A stretch of 64,000 bases of DNA from Dehalococcoidia bacterium. GTDB lineage: Bacteria; Chloroflexota; Dehalococcoidia; Lucifugimonadales; JAGWBF01. A model generated the notes under the pieces. It worked only from the letters and a program-made list of their open reading frames with translations. It made no database searches and had not been told where the DNA came from. The position numbers were made by a program, and so were the translations under genes. Where the stretch lies: assembly GCA_965248905.1 (NCBI GenBank), contig CBDFKS010000003.1:11369-75368 (forward strand), written 5' to 3'. This document shows, piece after piece, positions 1,897 through 55,269 of the stretch (position 1 is its first letter; every line of letters begins with the position of its first letter).

Positions 1897-2973
1897 TCAT
1901 CGGATGGCTTTGGTTACCGCGGTCGAGGAAACATTGGGTCCCCAGCTGGGAATGAGAGCGCAAAGAGGCGCCTCGGACCCGCCAGCAGCAAGCACCAGGA
2001 TATCGTCTGGAGATGCCACAAGCGAAATGAATCGCTCATCATCCCCCGGCTCCACATTCCCTTTGATCACTTCCACACGCTTGAGTTCCGCCATAGACCT
2101 ACGAACCCGGGTAGCCAGATGTTGTCGAACATCCGCCTTGCTCCAGCCCTCCCATACATCGCTGGTTCCGGCCGCTACGAGCACTATCTGGCCCTGTCGG
2201 AGCATGGCCGAAGTGTCGCCTATGGAACCGCTATTGGCCAATGAGCTACCTAACGAAGATGCCACATCCGCCACGCCCGCAAGAATGATCTCCGGTTTTG
2301 ACGCCATCCTGATCTGCCGTGGAGACTCGCAGGCGAATACGGTGACCGTGCTATCATCTCTGGAGAACCCCCGTTCTACGTGAAGAGGATTCCAATGGGT
2401 CTCCAGCTCATTCTCTGCAATGCAGTAGCTGAACTTGCCCGGATGCCCCAGAATGCTACGGTCGAAGAGGCCGGGTATGGCGGCACAGGCATTCATGAGT
2501 ATGAGCCGGATGGACCTGCCTATGGTGGAGTTGGCCCGGTTTCCTGGGCCAAAGAGGTTATTTTTACAGTTAATATCCAACTCTTGGATTATAGGGCCAT
2601 TTATTATCAACAGGATGCCTGCCCCGCCCAGACTGGAGGAGGGGCCGATCAGGTTGAAGGCAGGGTCCAGAACGGCCTCGGTAGCCGCTAGAACAACGGG
2701 AAAGTATTCGGGCAGGCAGCCGGCCATCACGGCGTTGGCCGCAACTTTGCCCACGGTTACCTCTCGTCGACGCTCCGGCAACGAGCCCAGGACCTCGTCG
2801 GCTGGACGCTCGGCATAGTTGAGGAACTGCTGTACTCTGTCCACCGTGGGAGGAACCACGGGAAGGCCATCGGTCCAGCCCAGCTCATAGCACCTTTCGA
2901 TGGCATCTATGACGCCATCCCACTCGGTTTGAACCAGATCCTTTGCGCCTGAGGTCACAGCCACTCCTCCCAT
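1897..2973 (-). CDS. Conserved hypothetical protein (358 aa), upstream operon partner of the UGSC gene
   Basis: A long ORF on the same strand, 54 nt upstream of the UGSC gene. I recognise no motif. Confidence 0.65.
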   Translation of the reverse strand: MGGVAVTSGAKDLVQTEWDGVIDAIERCYELGWTDGLPVVPPTVDRVQQFLNYAERPADEVLGSLPERRREVTVGKVAANAVMAGCLPEYFPVVLAATEAVLDPAFNLIGPSSSLGGAGILLIINGPIIQELDINCKNNLFGPGNRANSTIGRSIRLILMNACAAIPGLFDRSILGHPGKFSYCIAENELETHWNPLHVERGFSRDDSTVTVFACESPRQIRMASKPEIILAGVADVASSLGSSLANSGSIGDTSAMLRQGQIVLVAAGTSDVWEGWSKADVRQHLATRVRRSMAELKRVEVIKGNVEPGDDERFISLVASPDDILVLAAGGSEAPLCALIPSWGPNVSSTAVTKAIR

Positions 2974-3120
2974 AGAAATTGATGCTGATGTTTGGGCTTA
3001 CGCTAGCACACGCCTATTGGGTAGTCAAGGGAGAGTGCAGGCTGTACGCTCACGTCAGCTCAGTCGTGGCCTATGCTATAATTGGCTGTGTCATATGGTC
3101 ATCGGGAGTGTCGCTCGCCC

Positions 3121-4680
3121 ATGAAAAATCGGGACCTGGAAGCAACCTGGGCATATCACGACGCCACAAAGCACTCTGTCTGGAGTATCCGCAACGACCC
3201 CCACTATTTGGATTTTGATAACCAGCCCCTCCCGTTCAAGATATACCCGGAGCTGGAGCCAATCCCTCTCCCCCACGACCGCCCAGTCTCAACAATGACG
3301 GCGCTATCCGCCATATCCACCATAACCGCTTCTGATGGGACCTGCATCCCTGACAAGACCACTCTCGCCAGCCTTCTTAACTATTCCGCAGGCATCACCA
3401 AACGGAGTACTTTTCCCGGCGGAGAGATGGTCTTTAGAGCCGCTGCATGTACGGGAGCGCTGTATCACATCGAGCTATACCTGGTTTGCGGAGACCTACC
3501 GGACTTACCGGCCGGTGTATACCACTTCGGGGTCCAAGACTTCGCCTTGCGCAAGCTGAGAGAGGGTGATTTCAGGCGCGTTCTTAGCGCCGCCAGTGGA
3601 CAGGAGCCCTCCATAGCCCACGCTCCGGCGATGATAGTGTGCACAGGCACCTATTGGCGCAACTCCTGGAAGTATCGTTCCAGGACCTATCGGCATTGCT
3701 TCTGGGATAATGGCACCATCCTGGCCAATCTGCTGGCAATCTCAACAGCCCACGCCGTCCCTGCTCGTGTTGTCATGGGCTTCGTGGATGACACTGTAAA
3801 CCGGCTGCTGGACCTGGATACCGATCGAGAAGTAGCCCTGAGCCTCGTTCCTCTGGGATACACCAGCGAAACGACCATCGGCGATGCCCCGGACGTTCGA
3901 CCCCTGAATCTAAGCACTGTCCCACTGTCCAGGACAGAAGAGGAATACCCCCTGATCGGCGCAATGCACGAAGCCTCCTCACTGACTACCGAGGAAGAAG
4001 CAAGGGTGTGGCGTGGGTCCACTCCCGCAACCTCTACAATCGAGTCTGCAAGCCTAACATTCTCTCCGCCGCCTCTTGCTAAAGAAGAAGCACCCACCGA
4101 ACCGATCGAGAAGGTCATCGTACGCCGGGGATCAAGCAGGCAGTTTCTTCGCCAGCCTATCTCTTCGGCTCAACTCATCACCATCCTTCAGCGGTCTACC
4201 CAGGGAGTCCCGGCGGATTTTCTTGAACCCGAAGGCACGATTATCAACGACCTCTATCTCATCGTGCACGCAGTCGAGGGCCTGCCTGCGGGAGCCTACC
4301 TCTATCACCGCGACGAAAACTCCCTGGAGCTTCTCAAAGAAGGCGACTTTCGCCAGATGGCAGGTCACCTAGGACTGGGCCAGGCTATCCCCGCCGACGC
4401 CAGCGCGGACGTTTTCTTTCTTGCAGACCTGAACCCACTTTTGGACCGTTATGGGAACAGGGCGTACCGGGCGACGCAGATGGAAGCGGGCATAATCGGG
4501 GGCAAGATGTATCTGGCTGCTTACGCCCAAAAGTTAGGAGCCAGCGGCCTCACATTCTTCGACGACGACGTGATCTCATTCTTCTCACCCCACGCCGAAG
4601 GAAAGAGCGTCATGTTCCTGGTGGCGCTGGGCAGACCATTACGTAAGCGAATCAGAAGGCCGGATCCTTCGTCTACTTAG
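3121..4680 (+). CDS. SagB/ThcOx-type dehydrogenase (double nitroreductase-like fold)
   Basis: It has the N-terminal W-AYHDATKHS motif typical of SagB-type dehydrogenases and a ~520-aa two-domain length. The start was chosen at ATG 3121, and TTG 3082 is also possible. Confidence 0.7.
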   Translation: MKNRDLEATWAYHDATKHSVWSIRNDPHYLDFDNQPLPFKIYPELEPIPLPHDRPVSTMTALSAISTITASDGTCIPDKTTLASLLNYSAGITKRSTFPGGEMVFRAAACTGALYHIELYLVCGDLPDLPAGVYHFGVQDFALRKLREGDFRRVLSAASGQEPSIAHAPAMIVCTGTYWRNSWKYRSRTYRHCFWDNGTILANLLAISTAHAVPARVVMGFVDDTVNRLLDLDTDREVALSLVPLGYTSETTIGDAPDVRPLNLSTVPLSRTEEEYPLIGAMHEASSLTTEEEARVWRGSTPATSTIESASLTFSPPPLAKEEAPTEPIEKVIVRRGSSRQFLRQPISSAQLITILQRSTQGVPADFLEPEGTIINDLYLIVHAVEGLPAGAYLYHRDENSLELLKEGDFRQMAGHLGLGQAIPADASADVFFLADLNPLLDRYGNRAYRATQMEAGIIGGKMYLAAYAQKLGASGLTFFDDDVISFFSPHAEGKSVMFLVALGRPLRKRIRRPDPSST

Positions 4681-31568: not shown

Positions 31569-32708
31569 ATGTCTCATGTAGGCTTACACTGTGACAGGTG
31601 TGACGATGTCGTGGAGGCCCGTCCTTCTGCTCTAGCTTGTCCAAGATGTGGTGGCCCCCTAGACGTAGCCTACGTTAACCGAGAGACCGTCCACCGCGCT
31701 GAAGACGAAAGGGTGCCCGGCATCTGGCAGCATTGGGAACGTTTGCCTCTTCACGAAAAGATTAATATCATCTCCCTGGGCGAAGGCGGCACACCTTGTA
31801 TCCGCCTTGAGGGCGTCGGTAGCTGGCTTGGCCTGAATAACCTGTATGCCAAGCTCGAATACCTGAACCCAACCGGTTCTTTCAAGGACCGGGGCACCTC
31901 GGTCATGCTCTCTGTGCTGAAAGAGCTGGGGTTCTCCGAAGCAGTGGACGATTCATCGGGCAACGCGGGCGCTTCTTTGTCGGCTTACGCCGCTCGAGGA
32001 AATATGGGGGCCATCGTCTTCGTACCAGCCTCAGCTTCCCCATTCAAAACAGGGCAGATCGGATTTTATGGAGCCCATGTCCGCCCCATAGAGGGTAGTC
32101 GTGAAGCGGTGACGAACGCGGCCAAGCAGTACGTAGAGGAGCAGAAAGCCTGCTACGCCTCCCACAACCTGAGCCCCTACTTCGTCGAGGGTATGAAGTC
32201 CTTCGCCTACGAAGCAGCCCAGCAGGTCCCAGGTCCCATACACCACGTTATTGCACCGGTGGGTAATGGCTCACTGCTGCTGGGAACCATGAAAGGCTTC
32301 GCGGAGCTCCTCGACGATGGATCGGTGTCTCAGCTACCTAGACTCCACTGCGTCCAGTCCCAGGCCTGCATGCCCATAGTCGCTGCCTGGCGAGGTGACA
32401 AGTGGGAGCCAACCCAGGCACAGCCCACAGTAGCCGGAGGGATCGCCGTTAACAGCCCTCCCAGGGGACACCAGGTGGTGCAGGCATTGCGAGCAACTCA
32501 GGGATCGGCCGTAGCCATAGAAGAGGAGCGGATAGTGCACTGGCAAAGGGCCCTGGCACGTGAGGAGGGTCTCTTTATCGAGCCTACTTCCGCAGCCGCC
32601 TTCGCGGGATTAGAGGCCTTGGCGTCCCAAGGCGTCATCGGTAGCCAGGACGTGACCGTAATCCCTGTGACGGGGTTCGGGCTGAAGGACCCCATTCCGG
32701 AGTCGTAA
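31569..32708 (+). CDS. Threonine-synthase-like PLP-dependent enzyme with an N-terminal zinc ribbon
   Basis: CDRCDD...CPRCGG, the PLP lysine motif PTGSFKDRG, and SSGNAGAS. Confidence 0.75.
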   Translation: MSHVGLHCDRCDDVVEARPSALACPRCGGPLDVAYVNRETVHRAEDERVPGIWQHWERLPLHEKINIISLGEGGTPCIRLEGVGSWLGLNNLYAKLEYLNPTGSFKDRGTSVMLSVLKELGFSEAVDDSSGNAGASLSAYAARGNMGAIVFVPASASPFKTGQIGFYGAHVRPIEGSREAVTNAAKQYVEEQKACYASHNLSPYFVEGMKSFAYEAAQQVPGPIHHVIAPVGNGSLLLGTMKGFAELLDDGSVSQLPRLHCVQSQACMPIVAAWRGDKWEPTQAQPTVAGGIAVNSPPRGHQVVQALRATQGSAVAIEEERIVHWQRALAREEGLFIEPTSAAAFAGLEALASQGVIGSQDVTVIPVTGFGLKDPIPES

Positions 32709-32803
32709 CGCGGTCTCTTTACCACATTTTTGGTCCTCTATCGCTGAATGCTATAATGCGTACTTTGCACCAACCCCCCATCCCAGCCTTCCCCCGCAAG
32801 GGG

Positions 32804-34128
32804 CTCACTGGGGTAGGCATTTGAAATTATGAGCTTTGGGAACCGGTTTATGGTAGGTAATTTGCAAACCAGGGAGTGGGTTTGGCCAAGGTTCAGGTAT
32901 GAGCCACAGGCGAAGCCAAGGCCTACCCTGGAGCAGTTGCCGAGTCATACAGCATATGCCCTTCTTTATCACGCTATCCTTTCGGGGTCCAGAACAGCTA
33001 GGAAGTGGATGAGGGCTTCTGACTCTCTGGGGAGGTACTCCAAGAGAAATAGCGTCTTCTGCTCTGGTCCCATAGGCCGTGGCCCACAGGGTAGCCACCG
33101 CCAGAACGAGCCAGTACCGGGCCACTCGGTCCGGGTCAGTCCGTCGAGTGCGTTGCCATTGCCAACCCACACTCTTGAGAGCGCGAAAACCCAACTCGAT
33201 CCAGAAGCGCAACCCATACCAGCATACCCCCACATCCTCGGGAGGCAAGTCGGTAATCACTATCCAGGGTTCCTTCTGGCCTTTATCCCAAACCACCACC
33301 AAAGTACCGAAGCGGTGGCGCTTGGGATTATAAAAGGCACTGCCCCTTCCTACCCAGGCGTGGCCTGGTCCGGGAATCAGCGTCCTGGCTTGCCGGCGTT
33401 GCCCCTGCAACGGTTGAAAGCTGGTGTTGTTTTTTACCCGCATCAGTGGATGCCATCCCAAGGCCCGTATTTGCTTCCAAAGGCGGGGGCTCCACAAGCC
33501 CCGGTCAGTCATCACCAGCACCTCCATGCTTTTGGACACTTCGGGAGCAAGCAGTTGCAAAAGCCGGAGGATTTCGGGAATCCAAGCCCCCGACCTGTTA
33601 GCAGGGAGTATGGTCCAGGCAATGGGAATGGCGCTACCCCGGTACAGCACGCTTACTACCAGGGCGACCACGCGGTCTTGGTGGGCTGTTGCGTCGACGG
33701 CCAAGGCCAGTTGTTGACCTTTCCACAAAGACAGCAGCCAGCGGAGCAAAGGCGCAAAACAGAGGGTTACATCCAACTGGATGTTGCAGGGAGTGGCCTT
33801 CTCCGAACCATCCCGAAGGAACTCTCTAAGGTATTGTCGCAGAGCATGGAAGGTGGCGATGGAGGATAGAGCATCAATCACCGCGCTTTGGCAAGCACTC
33901 TTAGCCATGATTGCCCCATACACCCATAGCGCCAATCCACGTATTTGGCTGGATCTTAGGTCAGGAAAATACTGTTCAGTTGAACGTAGCAAGTGGTACC
34001 ATTCTCTCGGAAAGCGCATGAGTCACCTCCCCACATCCCAGTTGAGTGATACTTCTAGGATGACGGGAAAGCTCGGCGCTTTCCTAGCTGTTTTTAAACA
34101 AGTTTTAGGATATGCCTACCCCAGTGAG
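32804..34128 (-). mobile_element. IS4-family insertion sequence, copy 1 (1325 bp)
   Basis: Perfect 17-bp terminal IRs CTCACTGGGGTAGGCAT and a perfect 11-bp direct repeat CCCGCAAGGGG at 32793-32803 and 34129-34139. Confidence 0.9.
32805..34019 (-). CDS. IS4-family DDE transposase (404 aa)
   Basis: LAVDAT (D), VMTDRG (D) and YGLRFWIELGFRALK, which is the Y-(2)-R-(3)-E-(6)-K signature of the IS4 family. The stop codon lies inside the terminal IR. Confidence 0.85.
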   Translation of the reverse strand: MRFPREWYHLLRSTEQYFPDLRSSQIRGLALWVYGAIMAKSACQSAVIDALSSIATFHALRQYLREFLRDGSEKATPCNIQLDVTLCFAPLLRWLLSLWKGQQLALAVDATAHQDRVVALVVSVLYRGSAIPIAWTILPANRSGAWIPEILRLLQLLAPEVSKSMEVLVMTDRGLWSPRLWKQIRALGWHPLMRVKNNTSFQPLQGQRRQARTLIPGPGHAWVGRGSAFYNPKRHRFGTLVVVWDKGQKEPWIVITDLPPEDVGVCWYGLRFWIELGFRALKSVGWQWQRTRRTDPDRVARYWLVLAVATLWATAYGTRAEDAISLGVPPQRVRSPHPLPSCSGPRKDSVIKKGICCMTRQLLQGRPWLRLWLIPEPWPNPLPGLQITYHKPVPKAHNFKCLPQ

Positions 34129-34252
34129 CCCGCAAGGGGGGAAGGAGCTATATTCTCTCCCGAGGAGATCCCCATTGATGGGGGAAACTTGGAGTGCAGA
34201 TGGATCCTTGTAAAACGCATCTCCGCATGCAAGTAGAGAGTAGGAGGTTAGC

Positions 34253-39502: not shown

Positions 39503-39590
39503 TTTCACCCCCACTCTAACTCTCCCCCGTCGAGGGGGAGAGAACAAGTCCCTTCCCTCTCGATGGGGGAAGGCTAGGATGGGGGTGAAA
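39503..39590. repeat. 88-bp nested-palindrome GC-rich repeat (intact copy)
   Basis: tttcacccccactctaa-CTCTCCCCCgtcgaGGGGGAGAG-aacaagtc-CCTTCCCtctcgatGGGGGAAGG-ctaggatgggggtgaaa. The outer arms are also complementary. Confidence 0.65.
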
Positions 39591-52602: not shown

Positions 52603-52682
52603 CGACTGAAACCCCAAGGCCTCAGCTTCCTGTTGCCTAGTACTCGGTCGACCTTAGATCGATGCACAGTTTCACCCCCAAT

Positions 52683-53918
52683 CTAACTCTCCCCCATCGA
52701 GGGCTCACTGGGGTAGGCATTTGAAATTATGAGCTTTGGGAACCGGTTTATGGTAGGTAATTTGCAAACCAGGAGTGGGTTTGGCCAAGGTTCAGGTATG
52801 AGCCACAGGCGAAGCCAAGGCCTACCCTGGAGCAGTTGCCGAGTCATACAGCATATGCCCTTCTTTATCACGCTATCCTTTCGGGGTCCAGAACAGCTAG
52901 GAAGTGGATGAGGGCTTCTGACTCTCTGGGGAGGTACTCCAAGAGAAATAGCGTCTTCTGCTCTGGTCCCATAGGCCGTGGCCCACAGGGTAGCCACCGC
53001 CAGAACGAGCCAGTACCGGGCCACTCGGTCCGGGTCAGTCCGTCGAGTGCGTTGCCATTGCCAACCCACACTCTTGAGAGCGCGAAAACCCAACTCGATC
53101 CAGAAGCGCAACCCATACCAGCATACCCCCACATCCTCGGGAGGCAAGTCGGTAATCACTATCCAGGGTTCCTTCTGGCCTTTATCCCAAACCACCACCA
53201 AAGTACCGAAGCGGTGGCGCTTGGGATTATAAAAGGCACTGCCCCTTCCTACCCAGGCGTGGCCTGGTCCGGGAATCAGCGTCCTGGCTTGCCGGCGTTG
53301 CACCTGCAACGGTTGAAAGCTGGTGTTGTTTTTTACCCGCATCAGTGGATGCCATCCCAAGGCCCGTATTTGCTTCCAAAGGCGGGGGCTCCACAAGCCC
53401 CGGTCAGTCATCACCAGCACCTCCATGCTTTTGGACACTTCGGGAGCAAGCAGTTGCAAAAGCCGGAGGATTTCGGGAATCCAAGCCCCCGACCTGTTAG
53501 CAGGGAGTATGGTCCAGGCAATGGGAATGGCGCTACCCCGGTACAGCACGCTTACTACCAGGGCGACCACGCGGTCTTGGTGGGCTGTTGCGTCGACGGC
53601 CAAGGCCAGTTGTTGACCTTTCCACAAAGACAGCAGCCAGCGGAGCAAAGGCGCAAAACAGAGGGTTACATCCAACTGGATGTTGCAGGGAGTGGCCTTC
53701 TCCGAACCATCCCGAAGGAACTCTCTAAGGTATTGTCGCAGAGCATGGAAGGTGGCGATGGAGGATAGAGCATCAATCACCGCGCTTTGGCAAGCACTCT
53801 TAGCCATGATTGCCCCATACACCCATAGCGCCAATCCACGTATTTGGCTGGATCTTAGGTCAGGAAAATACTGTTCAGTTGAACGTAGCAAGTGGTACCA
53901 TTCTCTCGGAAAGCGCAT
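52683..53918 (-). CDS. IS4-family DDE transposase, variant C-terminus (411 aa) reading 21 nt past the IS end
   Basis: Identical to copy 1 except for G206V and a frameshifted tail after ..EPWPNPL, caused by ccaggagtggg here against ccagggagtggg in copy 1. Confidence 0.8.
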   Translation of the reverse strand: MRFPREWYHLLRSTEQYFPDLRSSQIRGLALWVYGAIMAKSACQSAVIDALSSIATFHALRQYLREFLRDGSEKATPCNIQLDVTLCFAPLLRWLLSLWKGQQLALAVDATAHQDRVVALVVSVLYRGSAIPIAWTILPANRSGAWIPEILRLLQLLAPEVSKSMEVLVMTDRGLWSPRLWKQIRALGWHPLMRVKNNTSFQPLQVQRRQARTLIPGPGHAWVGRGSAFYNPKRHRFGTLVVVWDKGQKEPWIVITDLPPEDVGVCWYGLRFWIELGFRALKSVGWQWQRTRRTDPDRVARYWLVLAVATLWATAYGTRAEDAISLGVPPQRVRSPHPLPSCSGPRKDSVIKKGICCMTRQLLQGRPWLRLWLIPEPWPNPLLVCKLPTINRFPKLIISNAYPSEPSMGES

Positions 53919-54027
53919 GAGTCACCTCCCCACATCCCAGTTGAGTGATACTTCTAGGATGACGGGAAAGCTCGGCGCTTTCCTAGCTGTTTTTAAACAA
54001 GTTTTAGGATATGCCTACCCCAGTGAG
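52704..54027 (-). mobile_element. IS4-family insertion sequence, copy 2 (1324 bp)
   Basis: It has the same 17-bp IRs and is near-identical to copy 1, differing by one 1-bp indel and at least one substitution. The flanking 11-bp repeats are CCCATCGAGGG and CCCATCAAGGG. Confidence 0.9.
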
Positions 54028-54268
54028 CCCATCAAGGGGGAGAGGACAAGTCCCTTCCCTCTTGATGGGGGAAGGCTAGGATGGGGGTGAAGGGCACCTT
54101 CAAATCTAGGTTGAATGAGTACTAGCTTTCCGCTCTAGAAGAACCTCTACCACTAGACCGCATCATTAACTCGAGTCCGGGTAGATACACGCCCCCGACT
54201 GGTACTAGTCGTCGCTGCTCTCATCCTCGCTGGCAGGTTTGCCGAAGTTCTTTGCACCGTGGCCGAGG

Positions 54269-54378
54269 CCATGTCCTGCACGGTAGTCATGTTGTTGTCA
54301 TCCGGGTCGGTGAAGATGCCGGGCCATGTCCTGCACGGTAGTCATGTTGTTGTCATCCGGGTCGGTGAAGATGCCGGG
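54269..54378. repeat. Perfect 55-bp tandem duplication (two copies)
   Basis: ccatgtcctgcacggtagtcatgttgttgtcatccgggtcggtgaagatgccggg at 54269-54323 and again at 54324-54378. Confidence 0.95.
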
Positions 54379-55269
54379 ACGCGGCGGCTGGTTCAAGCCA
54401 CTCTGGAACAGCCGCATATCATCGGAATCAATGTCTTCATCCGCATCGGCATCTCCGGCGTCCAGCTGGGCATCTCCAAGATCGACTGGGTTGCCAGATG
54501 TCCCGACTACGAAGCTGATGGTCTCAGGCAGCCAGCCGGAGTGGGTAGCTCGTAGTTCGTAGTTACCAGGCTCAAGATCAAACATGTACCCACCATCCGA
54601 AGACGTAACCACCGGCGGGCCTTGTTGTACTCCGTCACGGAACAGTATCAGTTCAGTGCCTGCATGGTTGTCGGCACCACGGGCCTGGAGAAGTACACGC
54701 CCATCCACCTCAGACGTGGTAGGCCCTACGTCTACGATCCGGAAGGTGTCCGTATTAGACTCGAAGGCGGGAACGTTCGTGTCATCCGTAAAGAGTGCGA
54801 ATCTGGCCTGGTAGTCTCCCGCGTCCATATTAGTGGAATCGATTATTACCCGGTACTTGAACTGGGACGGCCCAACGTCGTAGCCATACCCGTAGCCGTA
54901 GCCGTATCCATACCCATAACTGTAGCCATAATTATACCCGTTGTCGGTTTGGGAAAGCAGAATTACATCCTTAATCTGAGGGGATTTACTCTTTAGTTTC
55001 CCAAACAGCAGGAAATTAGCCTGGATAGATGTCGGGCCGGTGGCGAGGAATTCGAGTTCTTGTATGCTAAGGTTTTCCCTGAAAGTGAGGGTCATATCGC
55101 AAAAGAACTCGTCACCACGCTGAACGGTAGCCTCTGGGCAATCAAGCTCTAGGGTGACCGCCGAGGCACGCCCAAGCAACAAAAATGGAGCGACAATCGC
55201 TGCCGTTAAGGCCAGCGAAATAAGGAACCTGAGATGTATGCCACTGCGTAGCGTGGTCGGCAGATTCAA
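54298..55269 (-). CDS. Secreted protein with a (G/S/N)Y repeat, a carboxypeptidase-regulatory-like domain and a dockerin/EF-hand-like acidic C-terminus
   Basis: A signal peptide, NGYNYGYSYGYGYGYGYGYGYD, SDGGYMFDLEPGNYELRA and GDADADEDIDSDD. The 3' end lies inside the 55-bp duplication. Confidence 0.6.
   Translation of the reverse strand: MNLPTTLRSGIHLRFLISLALTAAIVAPFLLLGRASAVTLELDCPEATVQRGDEFFCDMTLTFRENLSIQELEFLATGPTSIQANFLLFGKLKSKSPQIKDVILLSQTDNGYNYGYSYGYGYGYGYGYGYDVGPSQFKYRVIIDSTNMDAGDYQARFALFTDDTNVPAFESNTDTFRIVDVGPTTSEVDGRVLLQARGADNHAGTELILFRDGVQQGPPVVTSSDGGYMFDLEPGNYELRATHSGWLPETISFVVGTSGNPVDLGDAQLDAGDADADEDIDSDDMRLFQSGLNQPPRPGIFTDPDDNNMTTVQDMARHLHRPG

Follow-up and report, generated by a model that had tools for sequence, protein, structure and literature searches.

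How does an insertion sequence (IS) come to lie in the loop of a hairpin, and does its transposase respond to the folded hairpin or to the sequence that folds? The question is raised by a 64,000-nucleotide stretch of a contig from a Dehalococcoidia bacterium (CBDFKS010000003.1, positions 11,369 to 75,368; hereafter the window), in which two copies of one IS lie within hairpins of repeats that resemble repetitive extragenic palindromes (REPs). An earlier note on this DNA, made from the sequence alone, had proposed that hairpins or palindromes direct the choice of target. The best explanation, which we hold to be probable when taken as a whole, is that the element is an active or recently active insertion sequence of the IS4 family, that its clade is found mainly in Dehalococcoidia/Chloroflexota, and that the transposase of this clade selects a single target class, a palindrome that would be recognized symmetrically as duplex DNA and joined with a fixed 11-bp stagger, in preference to recognition of an extruded hairpin.

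The two copies (Table 1) are 99.8% identical, the differences being one deleted base pair (IS position 69) and one single-nucleotide polymorphism (position 600). The element ends are CTCACTGGGG, beginning 5'-CT, and the 17-bp terminal inverted repeat CTCACTGGGGTAGGCAT has four exact occurrences in the window, all of which are IS ends, against 0.22 expected by chance. Copy 1 has one open reading frame (ORF), of 404 aa on the minus strand, the stop codon of which lies within the terminal repeat. In copy 2, the deletion changes the frame for the last ~22 codons, and the resulting ORF (52683-53918, 411 aa) continues into the flank; its protein also carries one G-to-V change.

Both copies interrupt a hairpin in the same way. 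Removal of the IS and one direct repeat rebuilds CCTTCCCCC-GCAAG-GGGGGAAGG at copy 1 and CTCTCCCCC-ATCGA-GGGGGAGAG at copy 2, each a 9-bp stem with a 5-nt loop, as the earlier note had claimed. The target duplications have the form CCC-N5-GGG and span 3 bp of one arm, the 5-nt loop, and 3 bp of the other arm. The duplication is perfect on both sides of copy 1 (CCCGCAAGGGG), and the two repeats of copy 2 (CCCATCGAGGG and CCCATCAAGGG) differ by one mismatch. The two insertions are independent, again in agreement with the note, since they have different arms, different loops, and different neighbouring genes.

The interrupted hairpins belong to a repeat. Elsewhere in the window lies an empty unit of ~86 bp, which folds far better than shuffled sequences (z = -5.6) and with which the flanks of copy 2 share 94-96% identity; copy 1 sits in a diverged unit that runs the other way, with the insertion in the other hairpin of the unit. 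REPs as a class have a high copy number, often more than 100 per genome, and are often associated with a REP-associated tyrosine transposase (RAYT). When REP criteria are applied, the window units present 23-nt G+C-rich hairpins inside ~86-bp units, and all three units are intergenic, which bears out the description of the target as REP-like. There are three such units in 64 kb, and the unit type recurs on many unrelated contigs (L007, L008, L012, L023, L112, L145, and L146; L numbers denote loci from the scans described below). A search of Rfam returns no known RNA family matching the REP unit or the IS. The unoccupied hairpin that had been placed at 39519-39541 exists, with its correct position one nucleotide further on (Table 1). 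The empty unit has alternative folds, either two local hairpins or one long imperfect hairpin, hairpin 1 being complementary to hairpin 2, and its outer inverted repeats are TCACCCCCA and TGGGGGTGA.

The window also allows occupied hairpins to be compared with empty ones, as the earlier note had suggested. With the IS removed, it measures 61.3 kb and contains 30 CCC-N5-GGG sites, only three of which lie in hairpins of the C-rich class, together with ~25 other hairpins with stems of at least 7 bp. Two of the three C-rich hairpins are occupied. The chance that a random insertion falls in exact register at one of the three sites is ~5e-5, and ~2e-9 for two insertions.

The window holds two of about 10-12 copies of the IS in the source genome, and these two are the copies of the exact IS that are inspected directly. 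The copy number comes from the ratio of IS depth to flank depth in Logan contigs for the source sample (run X1, 73.1/6.87; run X3, 19.6/2; ~10 copies) and from a 90% protein cluster (~12 gene copies on four large contigs). In run X1, the collapsed IS contig corresponds to 32801-34131, that is, the IS and exactly 3 nt on each side (GGG and CCC), after which the graph branches. This suggests that most or all copies share GGG/IS/CCC, where slashes mark junctions or cuts, and differ from one another from the loop onward. The IS contig in runs X2 and X3 reaches only 1 nt past the IS on one side, and at least one copy or variant may differ on that side. By the criterion for a REP-targeting IS ('type 1 association', Tobes & Pareja 2006), which asks that all or nearly all copies lie in REPs at one fixed point, both window copies (2/2) conform, and nearly all of the relatives are situated in REP hairpins.

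Other samples and assemblies provide further views of the copy-1 locus. In related strains from other samples (runs X5 and X6), whose flanking genes are ~92% identical, 299 unrelated letters without the IS stand between the same two genes (window 32707-34187); this intergenic REP region turns over faster than the flanking genes. Some 30 bp from the IS, at 34158-34168, the REP unit of copy 1 has a degenerate second hairpin, and a Logan contig of run X1 lacks 11 nt there. Either an indel polymorphism of 11 bp or a difference between assemblies accounts for this. We considered an excision footprint at this position and rejected it, as the sequence is not a tandem 11-mer.

Relatives of the element extend the pattern from two insertions to dozens. 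A genome scan yields 24 loci, all in metagenome-assembled genomes (MAGs) of Dehalococcoidia/Chloroflexota, with transposases 44-60% identical; a metagenome scan with the end motif (15 fixed bases, sampling one IS end only) yields at least 120 stretches; and three further loci are added from near relatives (63-86% identity). The ends CT(G/C)AC(A/T)GGGGTAGG are common to the window element and all scanned relatives. Among the matches listed, elements at least 53% identical provide 66 distinct junction flanks, mostly from Dehalococcoidia/Chloroflexota MAGs and metagenomes, and these give the matrix CCYTCYCCC-N5-GGG, with GGG abutting the IS, at both ends. Reconstruction of 19 insertion events from the same matches reveals a perfect 11-bp duplication in 15 and stems of 9-21 bp in all but one. 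The target consensus of the clade is CCYTCYCCC-N3-5-GGGRGARGG, that is, short C-rich extragenic palindromes. In particular, the relative at 86% identity (L145) lies in a two-hairpin unit of the same type as those hit by the window copies. Insertions are found in both orientations relative to the REP unit.

The triplets next to the IS do not account for this preference. The IS-free flanks (81.8 kb) contain 181 CCY-N5-RGG sites, and only ~4 unoccupied ones have a stem of at least 7 bp. Few such sites have stems, and the specificity therefore goes well beyond the triplets. It could be argued that there is no real specificity, and that insertions made near-randomly, or at any CCC-N5-GGG, survive where they fall in neutral extragenic repeats; the REP units are indeed extragenic and presumably tolerant of insertion, and the data come solely from resident copies. 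We regard this as highly improbable, because the 66 junctions are in nucleotide-exact register, because such hairpins contain only ~2-10% of the CCC-N5-GGG sites but practically all of the insertions, and because other intergenic DNA and the remainder of the REP unit would be just as neutral. As judged from the aligned junctions, target choice is clearly directed, and every relative at 53% identity or above that could be examined appears to behave alike.

Before the geometry of insertion can be interpreted, the boundary between element and target has to be fixed. The window copies and the Logan contig read GGG/IS/CCC, and these sites could be described just as well by an inverted repeat of 20 bp and a duplication of 5 bp. 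The triplets (GGG...CCC), or the arms in full, might therefore belong to the element, in which case the true duplication would be the 5-nt loop, or the IS would lie inside a larger palindromic MITE (miniature inverted-repeat transposable element). A 115-bp MITE that combines IS-like ends with a REP hairpin, known from two related MAGs, would be in accordance with such an arrangement. However, relatives have other triplets beside the same ends, namely GAG/IS (L017 and L019), IS/CTC (L005), and IS/CCT (L020), each with perfect 11-bp repeats; the empty paralogue has the arms and triplets without an IS; and tandem 11-mers that resemble footprints retain GGG and CCC after loss of the IS. For these reasons the duplication is 11 bp long. 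In addition, the two IS copies with 99.8% identity have different arms and loops, and a 5-bp duplication contradicts the ~10-bp rule of the IS4 members that bear the YREK motif (PMC2266710). Assignment of the triplets or arms to the element is thus very unlikely. A related candidate, in which the arms are extended 33-bp inverted repeats of the IS, is ruled out by the empty paralogue and by the differing arms of the near-identical copies.

With the duplication fixed at 11 bp, its position relative to the dyad becomes informative. The duplication is centred in 11 of the 19 events, and in all 11 the C-run and the G-run are 5 nt apart. In seven events it lies 1 bp off the dyad (3+3+5 or 5+3+3, never 4+3+4), and in all seven 3 nt separate the runs. 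The length of the duplication, 11 bp, is the same at both arm spacings, and one cut is always 3 bp inside its arm (TCC/CCC or TCT/CCC). The claim of the earlier note that the IS inserts exactly at the apex therefore does not hold as a rule, and the length of the duplication does not follow that of the loop.

These observations bear on whether the transposase recognizes a folded target, be it an extruded hairpin, a cruciform, or a hairpin formed while the DNA is transiently single-stranded, and integrates at its apex. Several features are what such recognition would produce: the targets have strong stems of 9-21 bp with unconstrained loop sequences, the majority of events (11/19) are exactly centred, the 86-bp units have a much better fold than their shuffled counterparts (z about -5.5), and the stem sequences vary from site to site (CCTT/CTCT/CCCT...) with complementarity retained. 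However, cuts set by the hairpin would predict a duplication of loop + 6, or 9 bp for 3-nt loops, which is not seen; instead, the duplication stays at 11 bp and is off-centre in every case with a 3-nt loop, and capture of duplex DNA is therefore favoured. One relative (L020) has a perfect duplication and one consensus arm with practically no stem. Taken together, the constant 11 bp, this stemless site, and the insertions in both orientations lead us to prefer capture of a duplex palindrome over an extruded hairpin. The arms are, moreover, strongly conserved in sequence, beyond what pairing requires, and ~25 other hairpins in the window with stems of at least 7 bp (10 and 14 bp among them) carry no insertion, although this last comparison has little power with two events. 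Stems of 9 bp that close a 5-nt loop do not readily form cruciforms, and DDE enzymes of the IS4 type integrate into duplex DNA. We consider recognition of the folded structure unlikely. Of the earlier proposal, the directed choice of palindromes stands, and the part that ascribed it to hairpin geometry has against it the fixed 11 bp, the seven off-centre events, and L020.

In the mechanism that we favour, a two-fold symmetric transpososome would capture the palindrome as ordinary duplex DNA, with each protomer reading one arm through arm-specific contacts. The two strand transfers would take place a fixed 11 bp apart, about one helical turn, and a cut 3 bp within one arm (as in TCC/CCC) would give the duplication CCC-N5-GGG. 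With arms 5 nt apart, both half-sites would be in register and the duplication would be centred on the 'loop'; with arms 3 nt apart, one half-site would be in register and the other 2 bp out. The anatomy of the element, its 11-bp duplication and fixed stagger, and a target consensus conserved in the clade are observed; we infer that duplex DNA is recognized by a dimer and that the transposase itself does the recognizing.

Several points weigh against duplex capture in this form. All the evidence, and with it the mechanism, comes from resident copies that have been filtered by selection. Arm sequence and complementarity are confounded, and all targets represent one REP superfamily. For three loci (L001, L010, and L013), CCC-N5-GGG is also what a centred duplication would give, and the half-site-register rule is thus a post hoc fit to seven events. 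L020 is the single clear half-site target, and the exact IS is inspected directly at only two of its ~10-12 copies.

The clade also leaves traces that concern the fate of the insertions. In one MAG, REP hairpins without an IS contain a tandem 11-mer, CCTTCC-CCCCCTGCGGG-CCCCCTGCGGG-GGAAGG (L008 2742 and L023 4363), and such a hairpin adjoins a unit whose IS is flanked by the same 11-mer. The tandem 11-mers look like excision footprints, which cut-and-paste transposition followed by end joining could have left. Abutting 11-mers of this sequence without an IS are located at L008:2738-2775, L023:4358-4395, and L023:2738-2775, and one variant has the second 11-mer reverse-complemented. The footprint-like hairpins sit in a tandem array of ~190-bp units with both empty and IS-occupied hairpins.

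The 115-bp MITE, with ends CTCACAGGGGTAGGTA...TACATACCCCTGTAAG and an internal REP hairpin, occurs at L017:2715-2829 and 2839-4285, L019:4218-4286, and L006:2825-2886. In L017, the second MITE copy is interrupted in its hairpin by a full-length IS, which suggests that non-autonomous derivatives of the same IS family can spread target hairpins. The clade and its target repeats might then form a self-reinforcing pair, in which the transposase would mobilize hairpin-carrying MITEs with IS-like ends (as in L017, L019, and L006), and the hairpins would be remodelled by 11-bp footprints, tandem or inverted, that remain after cut-and-paste excision and end joining (as in L008 and L023); alternatively or additionally, an extruded hairpin might be genuinely required. 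We give this extended view little credence. If it were true, the IS would create, spread, and diversify its own safe-harbour sites in Chloroflexota genomes, and the requirement for an extruded hairpin would be new for a DDE enzyme of the Tn5/Tn10 type.

At some loci, the flanking 11-mers do not match. In L009 (2882-2898/4229-4245) and L147 (2388-2403/3702-3717) they are not direct repeats but exact reverse complements; in L004 they differ at the dyad-centre base only; and in L002, L003, L006, and L011 the loops are unrelated. The best explanation for the non-matching flanks is homologous recombination between IS copies lying in REPs of either orientation, and recombination of this kind implies IS-mediated inversions or deletions in those genomes. 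An origin of the reverse-complement flanks of L009 and L147 in transposition itself was rejected, because strand connectivity gives direct repeats in any conformation of the target, and an inversion between the arms would flip both loops at once.

The element belongs to the IS4 family. The copy-1 transposase matches Pfam DDE_Tnp_1 at 46.4 bits (cut-off 23), and the IS4 equivalog models of NCBIfam are matched below their curated cut-offs (NF033591, 105 bits versus 152; NF033592, 42.9 versus 115). By these profile scores, the transposase is classed as a homologue of the NCBIfam IS4 models outside their curated equivalog groups. In an alignment with 13 homologues (56-86% identity), residues D109, D172, and E275 are invariant, with the spacing D(62)D(102)E, as are all four residues of Y268-G-L-R271-F-W-I-E275-LGFRAL-K282, a full Y(2)R(3)E(6)K motif; the signature noticed earlier is thus present and conserved among relatives. 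The IS4 family is recognized by a DDE spacing of D(60-110)D(100-150)E together with the full Y(2)R(3)E(6)K signature (De Palmenaer et al. 2008; PMC2266710). The element has this spacing and the YREK motif; in addition, its transposase is encoded by one ORF, its termini are inverted repeats, and its duplication measures roughly one turn of the helix. A PDB sequence search for a Tn5-like template of the transposase gives chance-level matches only.

The subgroup is another matter. The 11-bp duplication had been said to fit the IS4 subgroup, which has -AATR ends, a length of 1400-1650 bp, and direct repeats of 10-13 bp (PMC2266710, Table 1); the 11-bp repeat fits, but the ends CTCACTGGGG, with their 5'-CT, and the length of 1325 bp do not. 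The CT ends and the size recall the IS10 subgroup, whose repeat is 9 bp. Compared by listed features only, no subgroup of PMC2266710, Table 1, matches ends, size, and repeat length together, and the pairing of 5'-CT ends with an 11-bp duplication is absent from every subgroup there.

How far the preference for hairpins reaches can be judged from more distant relatives (35-49% identity; L033, L091, and L015/16), which keep the ends and the 11-bp repeat and are not in hairpin loops. The hairpin specialization is therefore a derived trait of a sub-lineage. The end motif also occurs in a wider IS4-like set from diverse metagenomes (L033, L091, L015, L016, and many of L025-L144; 35-49% identity), in which 11-bp duplications lie in non-palindromic, often C-rich sites. 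The nearest plasmid relatives are from Nostoc, Stanieria, and Methylomagnum (35-44% identity).

REP targeting had been thought novel for an element with the IS4 signature, but it was already reported in 2006 for ISRm22 of Sinorhizobium meliloti (IS4 family, IS4Sa subgroup), of which 9/9 copies lie in REPs, with insertion, according to genome analysis, at the palindromy axis of a consensus that is itself highly palindromic (PMC1525189). ISRm22 has 6-bp direct repeats, and its hybrid repeats are attributed to recombination between copies (PMC1525189). As far as descriptions can be likened, the present element shares with ISRm22 an IS4-family transposase, REP targets, and hybrid repeats (here in L002/3, L009, L011, and L147). 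It differs from that element, which has shorter repeats, an alphaproteobacterial host, and another REP family, in its 11-bp repeats, made up of the loop and 3 bp of each arm, its 5'-CT ends, and its Chloroflexota host. 'Spectacular' conservation of target arms has been noted for some IS4-subgroup elements and for ISRm22 (PMC2266710).

In target geometry the element resembles IS231A (IS4 family, IS231 subgroup), the textbook example of a symmetric 11-bp target, which makes an 11-bp duplication at GGGNNNNNCCC, or GGG-N5-CCC (PMC2577343, Table 1, citing Hallet et al. 1994). Both have an 11-bp duplication, a two-fold symmetric target, and five unconstrained positions in the middle of the duplication, which is bounded on either side by G/C triplets. 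IS231A is a precedent for the mechanism favoured here, as are Tn5 and Tn10. Here, however, the polarity of the triplets is reversed (CCC-N5-GGG), making the duplication self-complementary, and the conserved symmetry runs 6 bp further into each flank; IS231 elements have ends that begin with CAT, measure at least 1450 bp, and come from the Bacillus cereus group (PMC2266710). Tn10/IS10 and Tn5/IS50, also of the IS4 family, resemble the element in their 5'-CT(G) ends and are known for cut-and-paste transposition, a symmetric target consensus, and a dimeric transpososome (PMC2577343; PMC2266710), but they have 9-bp duplications, a weak short consensus, and no association with repeats. REPs or palindromic units are also targeted by IS1397 and ISKpn1 (IS3 family) and by ISPpu9, ISPpu10, ISPa11, and IS621 (IS110 family), and in the case of ISPsy8 the insertion point is a predicted hairpin's symmetry axis (PMC1525189); IS110 members rely on a guide (bridge/seek) RNA (PMC11208160, PMC11187229). 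Unlike the present element, the REP-targeting ISs of the IS3 and IS110 families have other transposases and chemistry, and their duplications are 0-4 bp. We found no description of the clade in the open-access literature. The clade combines known traits and differs in triplet polarity, in a duplication that spans the loop, in having 5'-CT ends together with 11-bp repeats, and in host phylum.

Table 1 Positions of the two IS copies, their target duplications and hairpin arms, and the REP-like units in the window
Feature	Coordinates	Strand	Description
IS copy 1	32804..34128	(-)	1325 bp; appears intact; perfect 17-bp terminal inverted repeats at 32804-32820 and 34112-34128
Copy-1 transposase gene	32805..34019	(-)	404 aa, DDE_Tnp_1; D109/D172/E275; Y268, R271, E275, K282
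Copy-1 hairpin, left arm CCTTCCCCC	32787..32795	(+)	Final 3 bp inside the duplication
Copy-1 left 11-bp target duplication CCCGCAAGGGG	32793..32803	(+)	
Copy-1 right 11-bp target duplication CCCGCAAGGGG	34129..34139	(+)	
Copy-1 hairpin, right arm GGGGGAAGG	34137..34145	(+)	
Unoccupied REP-like paralogue, ~86 bp	39505..39590	(+)	Between two minus-strand ORFs; hairpin CTCTCCCCC-GTCGA-GGGGGAGAG at 39520-39542
REP-like unit hit by copy 2, left part	52672..52703	(+)	Arm CTCTCCCCC at 52687-52695; left duplication CCCATCGAGGG at 52693-52703
IS copy 2	52704..54027	(-)	1324 bp; frameshifted by 1-bp deletion
REP-like unit hit by copy 2, right part	54028..54091	(+)	Duplication CCCATCAAGGG at 54028-54038; second hairpin; outer repeat ...GGATGGGGGTGAA

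Copy 2 is adjoined by an ORF of 323 aa (54298-55269, minus strand) with a hydrophobic segment at its N terminus and a run of (GY)n (GYNYGYSYGYGYGYGYGYGY). From these features, it may encode a secreted or cell-surface repeat protein.

The element is a real case of a known behaviour, that of REP- or palindrome-targeting ISs, and not a new mechanism; its kind is known from ISRm22, IS231A, and IS1397. What the clade adds is a phylogenetically broad example of palindrome or REP targeting by a classical DDE transposase, with dozens of independent insertions in uncultured Chloroflexota. Its combination of a fixed 11-bp stagger, variable arm spacing, and at least one half-site target forms a natural data set on how IS4-type transpososomes read symmetric targets. 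For the host genomes, the 11-bp footprints and hybrid flanks are markers of past excision and IS-mediated rearrangement, and ISs flanked by REPs explain breaks or chimeras in the assemblies of these genomes. Because the ISs land in extragenic repeats, they are tolerated at ~10 copies per genome.

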